Source: an uncultured Bacteroidales bacterium
GTDB lineage: Bacteria > Bacteroidota > Bacteroidia > Bacteroidales > GCA-2748055
NCBI GenBank assembly: GCA_963792395.1
Contig: CAWBWE010000006.1
Location: 14,973-78,972, forward strand
Direction of reading: 5' to 3'
DNA length: 64,000 nucleotides
A model generated the notes under the pieces. The model was not told the DNA's origin, made no database searches, and was given only the letters and a program-made list of their open reading frames with translations. Of the stretch, positions 1,504 to 9,393 are shown piece after piece. Position 1 is the stretch's first letter; each line of letters begins with the position of its first letter. The position numbers were made by a program, and so were the translations under genes.

Positions 1504-1908
1504 TCAGCACTCAGAGCCTTTTTCCTCTTTCAGTTCGCCCGCATCACTCAGCACGAGTAAATGCCGTTTCAGTGACTCGTCCCTGAAGATCAGCTCATAC
1601 TCTAACATGTTTCCCAGGTTTTTCAAAACGGCATTCATAATCTCGCCTTTGGAGAGGGCCAGGTGTTTTATGGCCTCGGGAAGGTATTCCGGGGGCAGGT
1701 TTTTCCGGTATTCCATTAAGGTTCCGTTCAGGCTGAACAGGGCAATATGTTCCAGATTGTCTCTGTAAAAAACCGCCTCGTAGTATCCATCTTTCCTGAA
1801 CCATTCCACGTTGAGGGCATCTGTGAAATTCTCTGTAAATGATTGCAGGCAAACCGCCGATGGAGCTACTCCACTCCCTTCGATTACTTTTTTTAAGAAA
1901 TCCTTCAT
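1504..1908 (-). CDS. Hypothetical protein, PepSY/BLIP-like (DUF2874-like) repeats
   Basis: P.AV..SF...F.DA.NVEW...YEA.F and LPEAI patterns; preceded by the ECF motif. Confidence 0.6.
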   Translation of the reverse strand: MKDFLKKVIEGSGVAPSAVCLQSFTENFTDALNVEWFRKDGYYEAVFYRDNLEHIALFSLNGTLMEYRKNLPPEYLPEAIKHLALSKGEIMNAVLKNLGNMLEYELIFRDESLKRHLLVLSDAGELKEEKGSEC

Positions 1909-1925
1909 CTTTTTGGCTTATAACT

Positions 1926-1953
1926 TTTTGACGCAGAACCCGGCATAAGTAAC
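1926..1953 (-). promoter_or_regulatory. ECF-type promoter GTTACT-N15-GTCAAAA
   Basis: Reverse complement of ttttgac...agtaac, directly upstream of the ATG at 1908; one of 11 matching sites. Confidence 0.7.
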
Positions 1954-1957
1954 ACTT

Positions 1958-2524
1958 TTAGTCATGCATATATTTCTGCGTATATAAATACAATACCCTG
2001 GCCCGGGCTCTTTTCAGCCGCATCTTGGCGGCATCTTCGCTGATCCTTAAGGAATCCCCGATCTGCTTCATGGATAACTCTTCCCTGTATTTCATGAACA
2101 ATAAGGCCTTCTCCTCGGGGTGTATGTCTTCCAGGATCGTGAGCAGCTTTTCATAGTTCACCCCTTCAATCAACTCATCGCTTTCATCAATGATTTCCGG
2201 GATCTCATTTTCCCGGTCCCAGCTGGGGTAGTGCATTTTCTTTTTTTCACGCAAATAGTCAATGCAATGATTGTAGGTGACTGAAAATAACCAGGAGGAG
2301 AAGGAAGAAAGCTGCTTGAAGGAGGAAAGCTTCTCAAACACCTTGGAAAATATGTCTTCCGCCAGTTCTTCCGCTTCCTGCCTGTTCTTTACAAAGCTGT
2401 AGCAGTTGTCCAGCACTTTTGAATAATAACGCGCATAGAGAAGCTCAAAATATTTCGAAGAATCCTCGTTCCGGATTTTATAGATGAGTTCTTCATCTTT
2501 CAGGTGTTCCAGACCTTTTGCCAT
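1958..2524 (-). CDS. ECF sigma-70 factor (ECF-1)
   Basis: Region 2 (AEELAEDIFSKVFEKLSSF...FSSWLFSVTYNHCIDYLR) and region 4 (SMKQIG...KMRLKRAR). Confidence 0.93.
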   Translation of the reverse strand: MAKGLEHLKDEELIYKIRNEDSSKYFELLYARYYSKVLDNCYSFVKNRQEAEELAEDIFSKVFEKLSSFKQLSSFSSWLFSVTYNHCIDYLREKKKMHYPSWDRENEIPEIIDESDELIEGVNYEKLLTILEDIHPEEKALLFMKYREELSMKQIGDSLRISEDAAKMRLKRARARVLYLYTQKYMHD

Positions 2525-2590
2525 GGCTCCGCGTGCTTTGGGAATTAAAGGTAGGTGTATCGCCCCGGAAAAAAAAGTTTCAGTTATTTT

Positions 2591-2618
2591 GTTACCTGAA
2601 CAGCAAGTACCGTCCTAA
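2591..2618 (+). promoter_or_regulatory. ECF-type promoter GTTACC-N15-GTCCTAA
   Basis: Upstream of the lipoprotein/L,D-transpeptidase cluster; same spacing as the other sites. Confidence 0.75.
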
Positions 2619-2656
2619 TAGGGAATTAATAAAATAATACACTTATTGTTATTGAA

Positions 2657-3271
2657 ATGAAAAACAGAATTGTTGCAAGTATTGCATTTTTAGGAATGAC
2701 AGCCCTGATTTTAACTAGCTGTTCAAAAGTGCCCCAGGCTGAGATTGATGCTGCCAACGCTGCCATCGAGCAAGCAAGGTCTGCCGGAGCCGAAGTTTAT
2801 GTTCCTGAGGAGTTTGTAAGTCTGCAGGATTCCATGAACAGCGTTTTGGTAAGTATCGAATCGGAAGGTTCAAAATTTATCAAGACCTACGCGACAGCTA
2901 AAGAAGATCTGGCCAGTGTAACACAATTTGCCGGTGAAGTTCAACAGCAGGCAGAAACTCGCAAAGAGGAACTGAAAATGGAAATTCAGACCATGATTGC
3001 CGAGGTAAAAACGCTGATTGAATCCAACAGGCAACTGATCCTTGAAGCCCCCAGGGGCAAAGAGGGTACCTCCGCTCTTATTGCAATAAAAGGTGAGGTT
3101 GATGCAGTGGAAACTTCCATCAACGAAGCCAGCACTTTATTCGAGGCCGGTGATTATATGATCACCCTTGATAAAGCCAAAGCTGCAAAAGAGAAAGCCA
3201 CAGCGATCAATTCAGAATTGTCTGAAGTTATCGCTAAGTATAAGGCTAACGTACAGAGTAGAAGATCATAG
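2657..3271 (+). CDS. All-helical lipoprotein, DUF4398-like
   Basis: Lipobox LTSC; P.AEIDAANAAIEQARSAGAEVYVPE motif; Ala/Glu-rich helices. Confidence 0.75.
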   Translation: MKNRIVASIAFLGMTALILTSCSKVPQAEIDAANAAIEQARSAGAEVYVPEEFVSLQDSMNSVLVSIESEGSKFIKTYATAKEDLASVTQFAGEVQQQAETRKEELKMEIQTMIAEVKTLIESNRQLILEAPRGKEGTSALIAIKGEVDAVETSINEASTLFEAGDYMITLDKAKAAKEKATAINSELSEVIAKYKANVQSRRS

Positions 3272-3296
3272 ACGGGAAGAGAGATCCGTTAGACTT

Positions 3297-3330
3297 GCCC
3301 CGGTTCCGAGTCCTCGGAGCCGGGGTTTTG
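3297..3330 (+). terminator. Stem-loop / intrinsic terminator after the lipoprotein gene
   Basis: gccccggttccgag-tc-ctcggagccggggt hairpin followed by ttt. Confidence 0.7.
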
Positions 3331-3352
3331 TATATAATCATCCTTAAGGTTT

Positions 3353-4456
3353 ATGAGATCCAGAATTTGGCTCCCGGCATCCCTCCTTACGATGCTGCTC
3401 ACAGGCAGCCTGATCAGAATTTTAAGTAACAAAGCACCGGAAACCGAGGTGACGGAGGCTGGGAAAATGCTGGCAGAGGCTCAACTGGAGCGATCTCCGC
3501 GCTATGCCACCAGGACCTTCCTGCAGGCCGGCACGTATTACGATTCTGCCATGGTGGAGTGGAATACCCAGAATGACCGCTTCATCCTCTTCAGGAACTA
3601 CAATAAAGTGACCGAATTAGCCCGAAAGTCAGTAAATAGCAGCGAAGAAGCCATAAGCATTGCCCGCAGAACGATCTCAGAAACGGAAGATGCGCTTGGG
3701 ATCAGGCTTGAAAAATCAGAGGAAAAGATCCGGAATTTCCATGAGAATTTCAGCCGCTTCCCCATGGATAAGGAGCACCGGGACCGTTTTGCCAGGGGCA
3801 GATTGCTCTATTCAGAAAGCCAGCTTGCCTATAAAAACAAACAGTTCACCCTGTGTATGTCCAGGCTTGATTCCGTGGAAGCAATCACCAACGAGCTTTC
3901 ATCATTTTACCGGGACAGGCTGGAACAATATTTCGAGGAGTACCCCAAATGGGAGGCCGTGCTTGAACAAAGCATCACTTTCTCAAGAAAAAATCAAACC
4001 TTTGTCCTGGTGGTCGATAAAATGGCCAGGGAGCTTATCGTCTATAAAAATGGCAGGATCCTGAAGGAGTATCCTGTTGAACTGGGAGCCAACTGGGTGG
4101 GCGATAAAATGGAGCAGGGCGACAAATCCACCCCGGAAGGCCTGTACCGGATCCTGGATAAGAAGCAGAACGGGCAAACCAGGTATTACAAAGCCTTCCT
4201 GCTGGATTACCCCAATGCGGAAGATAAAAAAAGGTTCTCGCTAAATAAACAGAACGGGACCCTGAATCCGGATGCCCGGATCGGGAACCTCATTGAGATC
4301 CATGGAAGCGGAGGGAAGGGAATTGACTGGACCGACGGCTGTATTGCCTTGCAGGACAGGGATATGGATGAATTATTTGCCTTATGCCCGGTGCTTACCA
4401 GGGTCACTATTGTGGGATCAACAAAATCCTTAAACAGTCTAATATTCGATTTATAA
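3353..4456 (+). CDS. L,D-transpeptidase (YkuD) family protein, YafK/DpaA-like, with helical N-terminal domain
   Basis: K.EQGDKSTPEG.Y, YYKAFLLDYPN, IEIHG...WTDGCIAL with catalytic His/Cys. Confidence 0.88.
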   Translation: MRSRIWLPASLLTMLLTGSLIRILSNKAPETEVTEAGKMLAEAQLERSPRYATRTFLQAGTYYDSAMVEWNTQNDRFILFRNYNKVTELARKSVNSSEEAISIARRTISETEDALGIRLEKSEEKIRNFHENFSRFPMDKEHRDRFARGRLLYSESQLAYKNKQFTLCMSRLDSVEAITNELSSFYRDRLEQYFEEYPKWEAVLEQSITFSRKNQTFVLVVDKMARELIVYKNGRILKEYPVELGANWVGDKMEQGDKSTPEGLYRILDKKQNGQTRYYKAFLLDYPNAEDKKRFSLNKQNGTLNPDARIGNLIEIHGSGGKGIDWTDGCIALQDRDMDELFALCPVLTRVTIVGSTKSLNSLIFDL

Positions 4457-5217
4457 TGAGTCCTATTCGAGCAGATTTCCCCGTGGGAATTATCAGGAAA
4501 TCAGTCCTCAGATTGAAAAAATTTATCCCGAAGGCCGGTGAAAAGATCAGCCAGTGGATCCACAGGGTGCCTGAGCTCCTGAGGAAACATGCTGTTCTGC
4601 TGGCGGGAATGGCCCTGGTTGGGATCCTCCCCCTGCTGCTCAGAGCGGTGGTCTGGATGGTTCCGGTTTCATCACCTGCCCCGGTGCAAGTGGAAGAGCA
4701 GGAACTGGCTTCGCTCCGGCGCAAAATCAGCCAGGAAAATATCCTCCTGGACAGAAAGCTGAATGCCAGAAGGCCCGGATCCTATTACCTGGTCATTAAC
4801 AGCGCTTCCAATGAATTTGTGCTGTACCGGGGAACGGAAATCATCAAAAGGGATAAGTGCTCCACCGGAAGCTACATCCTGCTTAAAAACGGCGAGGAGC
4901 AGCAGTGGATGTTCAAAACCCCGAAAGGGGAATTCAGGATTCTGTATAAGACAGCCTCCCCGGTCTGGAAAAAGCCCGACTGGGCTTTTATAGAAGAGGG
5001 CCTGCCCGTTCCTTCTGCAAACCACCATACACGCTTTGAGTACAGTGTGCTGGGCGACTATGCCCTGAGCATCGGGGACGGATACCTGATCCACGGCACG
5101 CTCTACCAGCGTTTCCTCGGACTGCCCGTCACCCATGGCTGCGTCCGGCTGAATGATGAAAACCTGGAACTGGTATACAGGTCGCTTCAGCTCGGCTCGA
5201 AAGTTTATATTTATTAA
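4456..5217 (+). CDS. L,D-transpeptidase (YkuD), ErfK-like, membrane anchored
   Basis: TPKGEF.I..K...PVW..P, YLIHGT, VTHGCVRL; ATG overlaps the upstream stop (TAATG). Confidence 0.9.
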   Translation: MSPIRADFPVGIIRKSVLRLKKFIPKAGEKISQWIHRVPELLRKHAVLLAGMALVGILPLLLRAVVWMVPVSSPAPVQVEEQELASLRRKISQENILLDRKLNARRPGSYYLVINSASNEFVLYRGTEIIKRDKCSTGSYILLKNGEEQQWMFKTPKGEFRILYKTASPVWKKPDWAFIEEGLPVPSANHHTRFEYSVLGDYALSIGDGYLIHGTLYQRFLGLPVTHGCVRLNDENLELVYRSLQLGSKVYIY

Positions 5218-5226
5218 AAATTCGGA

Positions 5227-6030
5227 ATGCAGCTTAAAGACACGCCTGTAAAAACGGGTTCGAAAATAAAGTGGAAGACGGTCTGGACGATCTTTGCCCT
5301 GGCCGTTCTACTGGCCTTCTTCACCACGATCGCCCTGTCCCCGGTCCATAAATCCAGGGAGTTTCAGGAACTGGTCCAGGCTGATTCTGTGTTCATGGAA
5401 CAGTTTGACAGCAGGTACCATCATCCTGACCTGGACAGCCTGCTCCGGGAGCGGGCTTACAAAGAAGCGCTTTTGAAACTGGCAGAATCTGACTCCATCC
5501 AGCTGGTGGTGAACCTGTCAGACAGCACCGTTCTTCTGAATATTAAGGGAGTGCCCATACATGAGACCAGGATCCGTGAGTTCAGCAGGGATAAATTCCT
5601 GGAGAAGCTTCCCCTGATGCAGGAGATCAAACTCTTTTCCCTCCCCCTGACGGTTCTTTCCCAGTATGCCACCATTGTAAAAGAGCCGGTGGTGGTGCGC
5701 CATGCGCCCAGGGACGAAGAGGAAGCCGCAGAGAATGCCTGGCAACCGGACACCCTGGTGCAAAAGCCGGCTTTTGTGGCTTTTTCGGCTGAATATGGCA
5801 TCCAGATCATCTTCGAGCAGGACCGGGTGGAGAGCTTTCGCGAGCGCTGGAAGAAATTCGGTTTTTACAGCCATCTGCGCACCAGAAAGGCAACAAGTGC
5901 TGTTAAAAACTTCCTCCTGTTCTCCGGGCAGGAATACCAGCCTGCCATCACCATTGAGCTGCCTGTGGATGACCTGCGGGCCATCTACCGGGCCCTGCCG
6001 GACAGTACCCTGATCGTCCTGAAATTATAG
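5227..6030 (+). CDS. Membrane-anchored protein, probably a degenerate YkuD-like fold without catalytic His/Cys
   Basis: LVVNLSDSTV.L.IKG start and IEL..DDLRAIYRALP..T.IV end mirror the adjacent LDT, but there is no HG..C motif. Confidence 0.55.
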   Translation: MQLKDTPVKTGSKIKWKTVWTIFALAVLLAFFTTIALSPVHKSREFQELVQADSVFMEQFDSRYHHPDLDSLLRERAYKEALLKLAESDSIQLVVNLSDSTVLLNIKGVPIHETRIREFSRDKFLEKLPLMQEIKLFSLPLTVLSQYATIVKEPVVVRHAPRDEEEAAENAWQPDTLVQKPAFVAFSAEYGIQIIFEQDRVESFRERWKKFGFYSHLRTRKATSAVKNFLLFSGQEYQPAITIELPVDDLRAIYRALPDSTLIVLKL

Positions 6031-6067
6031 ACTGCTCCCTGCCTGGAATAAAAAGGGGACCTGCGCG

Positions 6068-6095
6068 GTTACCCTTTGGGCTTTTACCGTCATAA
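6068..6095 (+). promoter_or_regulatory. ECF-type promoter GTTACC-N15-GTCATAA
   Basis: 22 nt upstream of the ATG at 6118. Confidence 0.7.
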
Positions 6096-6117
6096 TTACA
6101 GATAAAGTACAAATACC

Positions 6118-6363
6118 ATGAAAACACAAACAGGCTACCTCAGGAAAATTGGCGGTTTCATTGCCAGAATGAGCACTGCCATCGTCTCCGGGATACCCCG
6201 GGAAAAGGCCGTGTTGAAACCCAGGAACTATACCATCCAGCACAACGGGAAGCCCTATGTTAAACCCGGAAGCGAAAAGTATTATCACCGGCCACCGGGT
6301 AAACCCGTCGTGGAGAAACAGACCCTGCTGAAAGAAAAGAAAAAAGCAAAGGCTGGGGATTAG
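6118..6363 (+). CDS. Small basic hypothetical protein (81 aa)
   Basis: A-rich leader, its own ECF motif, Lys/Arg-rich sequence. Confidence 0.55.
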   Translation: MKTQTGYLRKIGGFIARMSTAIVSGIPREKAVLKPRNYTIQHNGKPYVKPGSEKYYHRPPGKPVVEKQTLLKEKKKAKAGD

Positions 6364-7310
6364 TAATATTCCAATCTTACGGAGATCCTTTCCCAAAAAT
6401 TTGGTGCGTAAACAAAAATATCATCAGAGGTATATGGAATATTATCCTGACCTGCATAGATTTGTATCAAATCGCTTGTGTTAAAGCTCATGGTGCCATG
6501 TATGGTTTTTGTTTCACCTTCGGCAATGGCAGAAACTGAAACTGGTGTATAATTGTTACTTCTTACTATATATCCAGCCTGCCCCATCGGATCGTCGTTT
6601 GTTCTTTGATCTGGTACATCAGTTTTAAAAATGAAAGTGGTATCGGTATTGCCAAAGACATATGAGTGACTGCTAACAGGATAATTCCCCTCGAAACCTG
6701 TCCAGACCGGATTGAAAATTGGAGCAAGAAAATCTTCATGACTTGCTTTTAAAAACCGACCAATTTTCTCTACACCAATGGTTGGTCCATCGAAATTATC
6801 TCCAATACCACCATCAAAATTTAAATATTGCAGGCTGTTTCCATAAAAATCTTCATATGGTTCGGGTAATTCGAGTTCCTGGTAAAAGAATAAACAAATA
6901 GCAATAAAGTATATTAATTCAGCATTCTCACTTACTTCTACCTCATCAGGCTCAAAAATTACAACACTATTATTACTGAAATCTGCCAGACGTAAGGGAT
7001 TCGCTATATCTAAGTTATTGTCAAAAAAATCAATGTTGAGTTCCTCCCCGGCTGCTTGATTTTCATGCCAGTTGGAGAGTCTTAAATGCAAAAATTTTCC
7101 GATAAACCTGCTTGGAGTAATACTAGTTATATAATCACCAAATTGGGTATATTGAACAGTAGAAGTTTTATAGTCTGACTTTAATCCCTGGGTAGATTTC
7201 AGGTTGTCAGACTCTGTATAATAAGTCATGATTAGATCTAGTTTACCTCCTCTTTTCTCACACCCGGCGAAAAGGGTAATTATGGCGATCATTGCTATTA
7301 ATTTGTTCAT
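6360..7310 (-). CDS. Hypothetical lipoprotein (AT-rich gene)
   Basis: Lipobox FAGC; 316-aa ORF. Confidence 0.75.
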   Translation of the reverse strand: MNKLIAMIAIITLFAGCEKRGGKLDLIMTYYTESDNLKSTQGLKSDYKTSTVQYTQFGDYITSITPSRFIGKFLHLRLSNWHENQAAGEELNIDFFDNNLDIANPLRLADFSNNSVVIFEPDEVEVSENAELIYFIAICLFFYQELELPEPYEDFYGNSLQYLNFDGGIGDNFDGPTIGVEKIGRFLKASHEDFLAPIFNPVWTGFEGNYPVSSHSYVFGNTDTTFIFKTDVPDQRTNDDPMGQAGYIVRSNNYTPVSVSAIAEGETKTIHGTMSFNTSDLIQIYAGQDNIPYTSDDIFVYAPNFWERISVRLEYY

Positions 7311-7566
7311 ATTCGTTTTTTAAAATTATTACTAAGAGTGATATACACTGTCCATATCCGTAACTTCACCGATTACTTTCAAACAGCGGATCGCTTCGGC
7401 TTCACAACTCTCATGATTGCCATGGAATCAGGTTCTGCAAATCTCAGCTATAAAAACGAATCTGCAAAGAACTTGCTTACTATTATTGCTCCCCGGGTAA
7501 AAGAAAATATTTCCAGGATTGTATATTTTAAAGTAGTTTATATTATAAACCATATGAGCAAAAAAA

Positions 7567-7854
7567 TTATTTGGGATGAATGTAATTTTTCAAATTGTTT
7601 ACATAATTCTCAAATGCTTCAACTCCCTTTCTGGTCATGGAAACAGAAGTATTCGGATAGTTGTTTATAAAGGATTTTTTGACCTGGATATATCCGGCTT
7701 CCTGGAGTTTTTTAATTTGAATACTCAGGTTTCCCGATGTAGCCTGGGTTTCATCCTTAATGAAGTTAAAACTGGCTTCATCCACCGACATTAAAATCGA
7801 TACAATGGATAAGCGCAGTTGCGAGTGTAATATGGGATCTAAATCTTTAAACAT
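7567..7854 (-). CDS. Winged-helix transcriptional regulator (HTH_34, MarR/ArsR-like)
   Basis: LDPILHSQLRLSIVSIL...ATSGNLSIQIKKLQEAGYI. Confidence 0.88.
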   Translation of the reverse strand: MFKDLDPILHSQLRLSIVSILMSVDEASFNFIKDETQATSGNLSIQIKKLQEAGYIQVKKSFINNYPNTSVSMTRKGVEAFENYVNNLKNYIHPK

Positions 7855-8434
7855 GATCTTTTCTCCGGGCTATATTAAGTAATAATCCTGGTATAATCAT
7901 ACCTACCACTGCTGCCACCATCAAACTAATTCCATGGTAGTCACTATCCAGCCAGAAAGAACCCAGTCCTATTAAATTTAGTAATGCTCCTCCGATGGTA
8001 AGAGGTCTGAATTTTATAGATAATCCACTAACAATAATCATCAGGGCCAGCATAATTATAAAAACCGGACCCATGGCTTCTCCAAGTTTATCCGAAAAGA
8101 GAAATCCCATGATCAGCAGGTTCATGCCAATGATCCAACCAATGTTTTGCAAAATGCTCCCGATAACTGTTTTCGGCCTGTTTTCCTTTTTATGGTCTCT
8201 CCAGGCCCAAAGAAGGGTAATAATACCTCCTATCGGAAATAAATAAACCGGAACTATGGTAAACTTATATAATTCCAGGAGTGAAAGAATAAGCTGGCTC
8301 CCAAATACAATAACTGTCAGGGTGCCCCAAAAGACAAAGACACTGCCGTATTCCTTGAATCGATCTTTAGCCTCTTCTATTGTCTTCGTAATTAACAATA
8401 GACTTTGTTCTGGTGTTAATTCAGATTTTTCCAT
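7847..8434 (-). CDS. Integral membrane protein, partner of the wHTH regulator
   Basis: About six hydrophobic segments; LTPEQSL.LI..TI N-terminus; overlaps the regulator start. Confidence 0.78.
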   Translation of the reverse strand: MEKSELTPEQSLLLITKTIEEAKDRFKEYGSVFVFWGTLTVIVFGSQLILSLLELYKFTIVPVYLFPIGGIITLLWAWRDHKKENRPKTVIGSILQNIGWIIGMNLLIMGFLFSDKLGEAMGPVFIIMLALMIIVSGLSIKFRPLTIGGALLNLIGLGSFWLDSDYHGISLMVAAVVGMIIPGLLLNIARRKDHV

Positions 8435-8468
8435 TTAGTTCATTTTATGTTATAAATTAAGATGAGTT

Positions 8469-8496
8469 CAAATATAAACTAGTTTACATTATAAAC
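8469..8496 (-). promoter_or_regulatory. Primary-sigma -7 element (TATATTTG) with adjacent palindrome GTTTA-CATTA-TAAAC, a candidate wHTH operator
   Basis: Inverted repeat at 8482-8496 next to TAnnTTTG, upstream of the membrane protein/wHTH pair. Confidence 0.45.
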
Positions 8497-8555
8497 CTAA
8501 TTAAATCAATAAATAATTCTTAAGGTCCATGAAAGAAATATAAACTCCCTCAACC

Positions 8556-9176
8556 TTAAGCAGTAAGCTTCTTTCCGAGGAATCGTTTAAATCTATTTGC
8601 TTTCGGATATACAATGACGTTTGCCACCGGCCTGGAGATGGGTGTATTCTGAGATTCCCTTACCTGTACAGGAACTCTCCAGTCCCAACGGGCGCTTAGC
8701 TGGGTGCTGACCAGCCCGGCCCATTTCTGAGCCAGTTGCAATTCGCCCCTCAGGGTTAAGCAGTCATAATCGTTGTTATAGAATTCCAGAATGAGCTCCG
8801 GTCTGTGATCATGAAAAGAGAAGTTCAGGCTAATTCTTTCAATAAGGCTTACATCTTCCTTATTATAGCGGACATGGCTCTCTGATTTAGAGATTCTGCA
8901 CCCGGAAACTTCCGCCAGGTTTATTTTCTCACGAGTTTCCCCGCCCGGTGTTCTTCGGATGAAGAACAGGGTGTTCGCTTCGTTGCTGCCCATACCGATA
9001 AGGGTATTCTCCCAGGAGTCGTAATCCGCTATTTCAGTGCTGTATTCAGCTGCAAATTCTTTCAGCGGAGCCAGGGTCCTGTTTCGCCTTTTTTTATTCC
9101 TCTGCCACGCATAAACAAGCACTCCGGCCATGGAGGCCAGGATAATTGACCAGTCCATCATACTATTTAAGTTCAT
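8556..9176 (-). CDS. Hypothetical protein with N-terminal transmembrane helix
   Basis: 206-aa ORF; LEFYN...L.GELQLAQKW motif. Confidence 0.7.
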   Translation of the reverse strand: MNLNSMMDWSIILASMAGVLVYAWQRNKKRRNRTLAPLKEFAAEYSTEIADYDSWENTLIGMGSNEANTLFFIRRTPGGETREKINLAEVSGCRISKSESHVRYNKEDVSLIERISLNFSFHDHRPELILEFYNNDYDCLTLRGELQLAQKWAGLVSTQLSARWDWRVPVQVRESQNTPISRPVANVIVYPKANRFKRFLGKKLTA

Positions 9177-9393
9177 AATTCAAGGGTTTAAAAATAATTG
9201 TTCCTTACCGGCTAAAACCGGACACGACAAGTGCAGGGCTTCCGGAAAGAAAAACCGCTTCATACTGTTTTTCAATTTTGACGGGGAATTCCTTAAAAGT
9301 AACTTCTTGCCTTAAGCCCACCCTCACAATTTCATTAAATCACTTGACTGGCAATTCCTCATTGTTGTAACTTACCCTTACTCAATTCCCGGA

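Follow-up and report, generated by a model that had tools for sequence, protein, structure and literature searches.

A conserved gene cassette of Bacteroidota pairing a lipoprotein with two types of YkuD enzyme: a candidate module at the junction of peptidoglycan and outer membrane

Gene content of the locus

In a stretch of 64,000 nucleotides from an uncultured Bacteroidales bacterium (contig CAWBWE010000006.1 of assembly GCA_963792395.1, positions 14,973 to 78,972; this whole stretch is called the window below, and coordinates refer to it) we find a compact cassette encoding a lipoprotein, two enzymes of the L,D-transpeptidase (LDT, YkuD) family, here named ldtA and ldtB, and a further anchored protein, p4. 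In the list of open reading frames of the window, positions 1504-6363 form two divergent units, the cassette and its 3' neighbour being transcribed in one direction and a sigma factor gene of the extracytoplasmic function (ECF) type in the other. The features on which the argument turns are:

1504..1908, minus strand: orf134, 134 amino acids, predicted soluble protein without signal peptide, 3' of the sigma gene
1930..1953, minus strand: ECF-type promoter GTTACTT-N13-CGTC, exact pattern, between the stop of the sigma gene and the start of orf134
1958..2524, minus strand: ECF-type sigma-70 factor, 188 amino acids, divergent from the cassette
2591..2614, plus strand: cassette promoter GTTACCT-N13-CGTC, 43 nt upstream of the lipoprotein ATG at 2657
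2657..3271, plus strand: lipoprotein, 204 amino acids, with predicted lipobox LTSC (Cys22), DUF4398-like body, AP(K/R)GKEG loop and basic tail
3297..3330, plus strand: G+C-rich hairpin followed by a T run, 13 pairs (3297-3326) of which 9 are G-C, between the lipoprotein gene and ldtA
3353..4456, plus strand: ldtA, 367 amino acids, with hydrophobic N-terminal anchor, predicted helical domain (~28-195) and hydrolase-type YkuD domain (218-353)
4456..5217, plus strand: ldtB, 253 amino acids, with predicted membrane helix and transpeptidase-type YkuD domain (His213, Cys229, Arg231)
5227..6030, plus strand: p4, 267 amino acids, with predicted N-terminal membrane helix, helical linker and YkuD-like fold (~88-267) that contains no Cys

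The ATG of ldtB at 4456 overlaps the stop codon of ldtA (TAATG), and p4 starts 9 nt past the ldtB stop. Because the flanking genes of the window are common only to its closest relative, the cassette stands out as a unit with sharp boundaries. A preliminary description of this DNA had proposed an inducible attach/detach system resembling that of the Braun lipoprotein Lpp, in which one enzyme would fix the lipoprotein to peptidoglycan and the other would release it.

Conservation of the gene array

In species genomes collected by way of p4, the lipoprotein, ldtA, ldtB and p4 occur in this order at all of the first 11 loci, which stem from metagenome-assembled genomes of uncultured Bacteroidales or Marinilabiliales, and nine of these loci also hold the sigma gene and orf134. 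In an even sample of the order, p4 was detected in 24 of 201 genomes (20 of 167 genera). Twenty of these 24 loci were retrieved and 19 of them have the full array, the sigma pair being present in 9 of those 19; the lone exception (L032) is an array interrupted by a contig end. Pooled over all genome loci, the array is found in 30/31 and the sigma pair in 18/31. A sample of the phylum gave p4 matches in 5 of 401 genomes, three of them from one genus of another class, and both loci retrieved from that class contain the same four genes in the same order. Cultured organisms are also represented among the source names of the homologues (Marinilabilia sp., Carboxylicivirga caseinilyticus).

A metagenome search anchored on the lipoprotein returned 594 candidate stretches, 405 of which encode a relative. 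The best 80 of these 405 were kept. Of the 36 among them that extend 3 kb or more downstream, 34 have the full array; of the 67 that extend 400 nt or more in that direction, 62 have ldtA directly after the lipoprotein gene; and of the 47 that reach 1.4 kb or more upstream, 37 have the sigma pair. Across the same 201 genomes the lipoprotein occurs in 26, comprising all 24 carriers of p4 and 2 of the 177 non-carriers, and in these two the matches lie where short contigs (1.5-1.8 kb) end; no genome among the 201 has p4 or the lipoprotein while clearly lacking the other. Functional coupling of the four cassette genes is firmly supported by this pattern of order and co-occurrence. The preliminary description had called for such a survey of synteny, on the understanding that its proposal would fall if the genes did not co-occur elsewhere, and they do so far beyond chance.

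Two other readings, a chance neighbourhood of unrelated genes or an LDT-type toxin with its immunity protein, appear extremely improbable to us. The former is excluded by gene order and by co-occurrence across at least 20 genera. As to the latter, LDT-fold toxins do exist, and one of them, Tlde1a, appears at Z 3.0 in the list of fold matches to p4 described below, but all three YkuD-fold proteins have membrane anchors of their own and no secretion genes lie nearby in the window.

Two YkuD enzymes of different classes

Both enzymes score well above the cut-off of 23.4 bits of the YkuD family PF03734 (ldtA 67.7 bits, ldtB 68.0 bits), and their predicted catalytic residues (H317/C330 in ldtA and H213/C229 in ldtB) are invariant in 31/31 loci. 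The motifs QGDKSTPEG, YPN, IHG and WTDGC are present in ldtA, and IHGT...THGCVRL in ldtB. They differ two residues past the catalytic Cys, where ldtA has Ala (C330-I-A332, with A332 at least 90% conserved) and ldtB has Arg (C-V-R231). According to the available part of the text of PMC8263019, DpaA-like proteins and LD-carboxypeptidases carry Ala or Asn at this position and transpeptidases Arg. This residue shows ldtA to have a predicted hydrolase-type site and ldtB a predicted transpeptidase-type site, and the view that the locus combines two different classes of YkuD enzyme is borne out. The same applies to the assignment of ldtB as an ErfK-type enzyme translationally coupled to ldtA, given its motif and the TAATG overlap; its nearest solved relative is an ErfK/YbiS-type enzyme from Klebsiella. 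In the source genome (67.5% complete) and in two relatives (99-100% complete) ldtA and ldtB are the only PF03734 genes, so that all LDT chemistry in those cells would have to come from the cassette.

Among solved proteins, those nearest to the catalytic domain of ldtA are Bd1075 of Bdellovibrio (profile E-value 4e-9), Pgp2 of Campylobacter (1e-8) and Csd6 of Helicobacter (5e-6), and DpaA lies in the same range (7e-9). Like the former three, ldtA has a YkuD site of the hydrolytic kind that lacks the Arg of transpeptidases. All three are shape-determining LD-carboxypeptidases, which speaks for a cell-shape module, in which ldtA would trim stems locally to bring about a curvature or shape transition under stress while the other proteins localise it. 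However, Csd6 and Pgp2 have a C-terminal NTF2-like domain, whereas ldtA ends 14 residues past its YkuD domain and lacks one; unlike the three enzymes, it carries at its N-terminus a paralogue of the lipoprotein and is co-transcribed with a transpeptidase-type enzyme. A shape module would moreover leave that second enzyme and an abundant lipoprotein without a role, and we regard it as quite improbable. A word-based search with the N-terminal domain of ldtA found 13 close relatives only, all annotated as YkuD.

The lipoprotein and its conserved lysines

Cys22 of the predicted lipobox is kept in 30/30 genome loci and in 217 of 220 homologues. The match of the lipoprotein to DUF4398 (PF14346) stays below threshold (19.5 bits, cut-off 27.9); a relative reaches 26.9 bits and has PF14346 in the precomputed table, an Atlas cluster is named DUF4398 at 0.95, and the helical domain BBH37 is matched in a relative with 26.4 bits, again below threshold. 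The protein had been described as all-helical: a lipoprotein is indeed encoded at this place, and its helicity is inferred only from these sub-threshold matches to helical families. Its profile retrieved no solved structure below E 0.027. The lipoprotein gave no match to the Lpp family PF04728 with E-values up to 0.1 admitted, and neither did any protein of the whole source genome (67.5% complete); the E. coli control was detected. This agrees with the earlier remark that Lpp is not known from Bacteroidota, and in the accessible text of a preprint Lpp is reported from four gammaproteobacterial orders only (bioRxiv 10.1101/2021.05.31.446380).

A relationship was found inside the cassette itself. 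Residues 1-195 of the lipoprotein align to residues 1-193 of ldtA (hhalign probability 98.4%, E 9e-15), and cross-matches between hidden Markov models reach E-values down to 6e-20. These alignments show the lipoprotein to be a stand-alone paralogue, with a predicted lipid anchor, of the presumably helical N-terminal stalk of ldtA. Three features are present in the lipoprotein and absent from ldtA in the hhalign comparison, namely the lipobox, the AP(K/R)GKEG loop and the basic tail, and they include Lys residues that are predicted to be exposed.

Conservation of these residues was counted over 220 unique homologues out of 230 collected. About 80 had been retrieved through a pattern containing GKEG, which favours the loop, but the 150 from other routes all have it too. 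Lys135, within the loop, is present in 220/220, next to a residue 133 that is Lys in 140 and Arg in 78. Towards the C-terminus Lys194 is present in 213/220 and Lys196 in 167/220, and 157/220 have a Lys among the last three residues. The conserved sites are accordingly an internal Lys in a predicted Pro/Gly loop and the Lys of an AK(Y/V)K motif, not a terminus of the Lpp kind.

p4, a presumed pseudoenzyme

The preliminary description had mentioned a third anchored protein. Its N-terminal membrane helix is confirmed as a prediction; the predicted Cys-less YkuD fold that follows had been overlooked. p4 belongs to no Pfam or NCBIfam family, and PF03734 matches neither p4 nor, with E-values up to 1 admitted, any of 31 diverse relatives. 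Clustering at 90% leaves 206 relatives, all named hypothetical, and a full HMMER scan puts the family at 531 clusters at 50% identity. An AlphaFold2 model built from 50 sequences reached a pLDDT (predicted local distance difference test) of 84.3. When its fold was compared with 48,161 representative chains, the top 20 were all of the YkuD fold, with Z from 7.8 down to 3.0; the best match (Z 7.8) has a root-mean-square deviation of 4.6 over 103 aligned residues, and unrelated chains begin at Z 3.0. In a second fold comparison all 50 entries among the matches listed had the YkuD fold, and Foldseek placed LDTs first (E 0.014-0.3). An alignment of p4 with ldtB by hhalign gave a weak link covering the first strands only (probability 20.7%, E 1e-3). 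The window protein is free of Cys, as are 16 of 50 relatives, and the best Cys column is occupied in 15/50, below 50%. We conclude from the model that p4 is probably a YkuD-fold pseudoenzyme, and hold our confidence at this level because a Z below 8 is middling.

Sigma factor, promoters and hairpin

The sigma gene product matches TIGR02937 with 89.9 bits (cut-off 42.9), Sigma70_r2 with 50.3 bits and r4_2 with 32.3 bits, and of the sigma-region Pfam domains only r2, r4 and r4_2 exceed their thresholds, the composition of an ECF factor. The adjoining orf134, present beside it in 18/18 sigma-bearing genome loci, is a possible partner of the sigma factor or anti-sigma factor; family library scans gave no Pfam or NCBIfam match for it, and its Atlas lead is PepSY_like only (0.89 and 0.81). 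p4 was considered as the anti-sigma factor and rejected, as its cytoplasmic part comprises only ~15 residues and it stays in loci that have no sigma gene.

The ECF-motif promoter that had been placed 5' of the lipoprotein gene is found there. A search of the 4.19 Mb assembly for its exact pattern, GTTACYT-N13-CGTC, gave three matches, which all fall in the window within a span of 7.4 kb, and each copy lies upstream of a correctly oriented gene (lipoprotein, orf134 and orf206, the last described at the end). A reversed-pattern control gave 12 matches in the genome. Since the raw count is not above this control, the argument for a promoter rests on clustering and conservation. In the first 12 loci the motif precedes the lipoprotein gene with an identical 14-nt spacing (12/12) within spacers that are otherwise unalignable. 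In a second genome set the promoter stands before the lipoprotein gene in 9/9 loci that have the sigma gene, seven times exactly and twice with one base changed, and in 0/10 loci that lack it, and in the metagenome loci, omitting those with less than 250 nt upstream or too short to judge the presence of the sigma gene, it was found in 47 of 50 with a sigma gene and in none of 9 without. The orf134 promoter is kept in 9/9 sigma-bearing loci among L014-L024; nine further loci comprise five with 14-nt spacing, two with 15-nt spacing (by eye) and two that are unclear. At sigma-less loci, boxes like TAnnTTTG were seen by eye in place of the ECF motif, and these we take to be the housekeeping promoter form of Bacteroidota. 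This co-distribution shows that the predicted promoters of the lipoprotein gene and of orf134 belong to the adjacent sigma factor. The system had been called inducible, which holds where the sigma gene is adjacent (18/31 genome loci and 37/47 metagenome loci) and not elsewhere.

Upstream of the sigma gene itself lies a conserved box, TACCTTTAAT / TAccTTTG, ~20 nt 5' of its start (2540-2555, minus strand), which is seen at the same place in L014, L015, L016, L017 and L021. Its resemblance to what is presumably the housekeeping -7 box of Bacteroidota suggests that the sigma gene is constitutively transcribed and controlled after translation. In L024 (3900-4000) the spacer between the sigma gene and the lipoprotein gene is unusually long (500 nt) and contains a direct repeat of ~40 nt in two and a half copies that includes GCTATGTTACTCC.

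The strong hairpin reported after the lipoprotein gene lies where it had been placed and proved to be conserved: a hairpin with T run follows the lipoprotein stop in 26/30 genome loci (all but L024, L026, L033 and L043), with stems of differing sequence and irrespective of the presence of a sigma gene. The count was made with an RNAfold-based script, the hairpins having at most -15.7 kcal/mol and lying with their T run 20-110 nt past the stop; inspection of RNAfold output by eye gave 11/12. A stem-extension script, which flagged 12/30, was replaced by it, as A-T and G-T pairing had swallowed the T run. There is no ECF motif between the hairpin and ldtA, and expression of ldtA, ldtB and p4 would therefore depend on read-through. 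All of this fits a terminator or attenuator that would provide an excess of lipoprotein over the enzymes.

Proposed function

The best explanation of these observations is a dedicated module acting at the junction of peptidoglycan and outer membrane, which in the organism of the window would be activated by an ECF sigma factor dedicated to it. When the sigma factor fires, the lipoprotein would be overproduced, most transcripts ending at the hairpin, and its helical body would serve as a stalk presenting an invariant Lys at the wall, either Lys135 in the loop or Lys194 together with the basic tail. ldtB would open the bond between meso-diaminopimelate and D-Ala of a tetrapeptide stem and move the stem onto this Lys, fixing the lipoprotein covalently to peptidoglycan. 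ldtA would locate the lipoprotein by means of its paralogous stalk and cut the link again, or trim stems, and p4 could be a partner without catalysis of its own, binding stems or regulating ldtB. That the lipoprotein is in this way the substrate of ldtB (via Lys135 or Lys194) and of ldtA, and that the cassette thus attaches and detaches a covalent tether, seems to us quite possible, if short of probable.

Several observations weigh against such a tether. The preliminary description had pointed to a Lys near the C-terminus. A terminal Lys of the Lpp kind is not what is conserved: it is found in 73/220 homologues and is absent from the window protein, whose C-terminal end is VIAKYKANVQSRRS (...QSRRS). 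In 61/220 homologues the tail has no Lys past position 196, and over all tails Lys (296) and Arg (205) interchange freely. Interchange and Lys-free tails fit a role of charge better than that of an amine acceptor. Besides, the acceptor specificity of LDTs cannot be read from sequence. A complex prediction for the four periplasmic parts with the lipoprotein as a partner gave a score of 0.29 with the mark at 0.32, which speaks neither for nor against the tether. The name YafK/DpaA-type that had been given to ldtA stands in that the protein is hydrolase-type, but its profile places it as close to the LD-carboxypeptidases Bd1075, Pgp2 and Csd6 as to DpaA, and against the DpaA equivalog NF040599 it scores 32.6 bits where the cut-off is 365. 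Since the profile distances are equal and Ala at Cys+2 is shared, amidase and carboxypeptidase are inseparable for ldtA. Finally, the array has its exceptions, with a lipoprotein but no enzymes in L055 and L118 and with ldtA missing in L058.

The same features can be read as remodelling of the wall without a covalently bound protein: ldtB would form 3-3 cross-links, ldtA would trim tetrapeptides as an LD-carboxypeptidase, and the lipoprotein would be a non-covalent partner that pairs with the ldtA stalk or with p4 and activates, inhibits or positions the enzymes from the outer membrane, much as outer-membrane lipoproteins control penicillin-binding proteins in E. coli. This would suit a protein as near to Bd1075, Pgp2 and Csd6 as to DpaA, paralogous helical domains, which are natural pairing partners, and a tail in which Lys and Arg interchange and the terminal Lys is poorly kept. 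In three genomes no YkuD genes other than those of the cassette were found, which leaves ldtB as the source of any 3-3 cross-links formed there, and 3-3 cross-linking of the LdtD type is turned on in E. coli under outer-membrane assembly stress, as far as the available text of PMC6428754 goes. Remodelling leaves unexplained, however, why Lys135 should be invariant (220/220) beside a neighbour that swaps between Lys and Arg, and why the lipoprotein should be in excess over an enzyme whose partner it is (hairpin in 26/30). We consider it possible, though somewhat doubtful.

Covalent attachment at Lys135 or Lys194, that is at an internal or penultimate site, has precedent, because the sites of LimB27 and Lpg1810 are known. 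In the accessible portion of a December 2025 review (PMC12729407), LDTs attach Lpp through a terminal Lys, Lpg1810 of Legionella through a penultimate one (C-terminal Lys-Thr) and LimB27 of Coxiella through an internal one (Lys21); Dickeya OutB and alphaproteobacterial beta-barrels are further attached envelope proteins. As described there, these proteins resemble the proposed tether in being proteins other than Lpp that are attached through an internal or penultimate Lys, as Lys135 or Lys194 would require, and differ in that the attaching enzyme is mostly unlinked or unknown and that all are proteobacterial; the word stem "Bacteroid" is absent from the whole of the review.

Among known systems the cassette would work most like that of Lpp, LdtA/B/C and DpaA (LdtF/YafK) in E. 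coli, with which it shares a helical, lipid-anchored protein, a basic C-terminus bearing Lys and both types of YkuD enzyme. In E. coli the genes of the Lpp system are unlinked, whereas the cassette is a single operon with a terminator. Its lipoprotein is unrelated to Lpp in sequence, exceeds it 3.5 times in length and does not conserve the terminal Lys; its enzymes are membrane-anchored, the hydrolase bears a copy of the lipoprotein fold, and there are two additions, a pseudoenzyme and an ECF sigma factor. A second parallel is the LdtD/LdtE/LdtF remodelling programme of E. coli in outer-membrane assembly stress, which is scattered over the genome and controlled by Cpx and RpoS rather than by a dedicated ECF sigma factor, and which includes no dedicated lipoprotein or pseudoenzyme. 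The likeness here is that stress brings a YkuD enzyme of the transpeptidase type and one of the DpaA type into play together, to judge from the part of PMC6428754 available.

A literature search, from which subscription journals and supplements were not covered, found no published account of such a cassette, nor of its operon organisation, the membrane-anchored enzymes, the fusion of a hydrolase to a lipoprotein fold, the pseudoenzyme or the ECF control. By title it found no paper on the function of DUF4398, and none of the papers listed for pseudoenzymes dealt with LDTs. To our knowledge, the fastening of the outer membrane to the wall in Bacteroidota is poorly understood, and the cassette may be a so far unknown way of achieving it. 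One lipoprotein tied genetically to an attaching-type and a detaching-type enzyme gives a precise and testable hypothesis. The cassette also defines a Pfam-less family of predicted LDT-fold pseudoenzymes, a hydrolase that bears a fold copy of its own presumed substrate, and an ECF sigma factor with a small regulon, whose promoter is clean and predictable. In its fullest form the proposal would make this the first covalent tether between outer membrane and peptidoglycan outside Proteobacteria, built from a 180-residue helical stalk unrelated to Lpp, a dedicated membrane-anchored transpeptidase that joins it to meso-diaminopimelate by way of Lys135 or Lys194, a stalk-recognising hydrolase and a tuning pseudoenzyme, and gated by an ECF factor in most lineages. 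We think this rather unlikely to hold in its entirety; if true, the tightness of the envelope would be a regulated variable, set by an ECF envelope-stress signal.

Variant loci and neighbouring genes

Some individual loci have an organisation of their own. In L055 (3716-5615) orf134, the sigma gene and the lipoprotein gene are followed by transporter genes where the enzymes would be expected, and in L058 (558-2726) ldtB and p4 come directly after the lipoprotein gene. The lipoprotein gene of L015 (4306-4918) is split over two frames (residues 1-132 and 128-203), through a frameshift or an assembly error, and was omitted from the lipoprotein alignment (A4). L118 (5001-5591) is a solitary homologue of 196 amino acids on a phage-like metagenome contig; it has the lipobox and the loop (APRGKEG), and its tail closes with ...AKVRR. 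The genes around it match phage families (DNA polymerase, MazG, GTP cyclohydrolase, phosphoesterase, Nudix and UvsX), and a phage may here be using the tether or partner protein of its host.

Downstream of the cassette, the window contains two further genes preceded by the motif:

6068..6091, plus strand: variant ECF-type promoter GTTACCC-N13-CGTC, one base off the exact pattern, 5' of ORF81
6118..6363, plus strand: ORF81, 81 codons, small basic protein of no known family
8556..9176, minus strand: orf206, of no known family, with predicted N-terminal membrane helix, 3' of the third promoter copy
9280..9303, minus strand: third exact copy of the ECF-type promoter, upstream of orf206

Of 113 other loci only two, L014 and L015, have ORF81, each time with the motif upstream, and we take it for a putative, lineage-specific extra member of the regulon. 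orf206 was found solely in L014, the closest relative. Between 4500 and 8500 the G+C content falls from 0.53-0.55 over ldtB and p4 to 0.35-0.37 over 6500-8500, and the genes of this low-G+C block are not common to the relatives.

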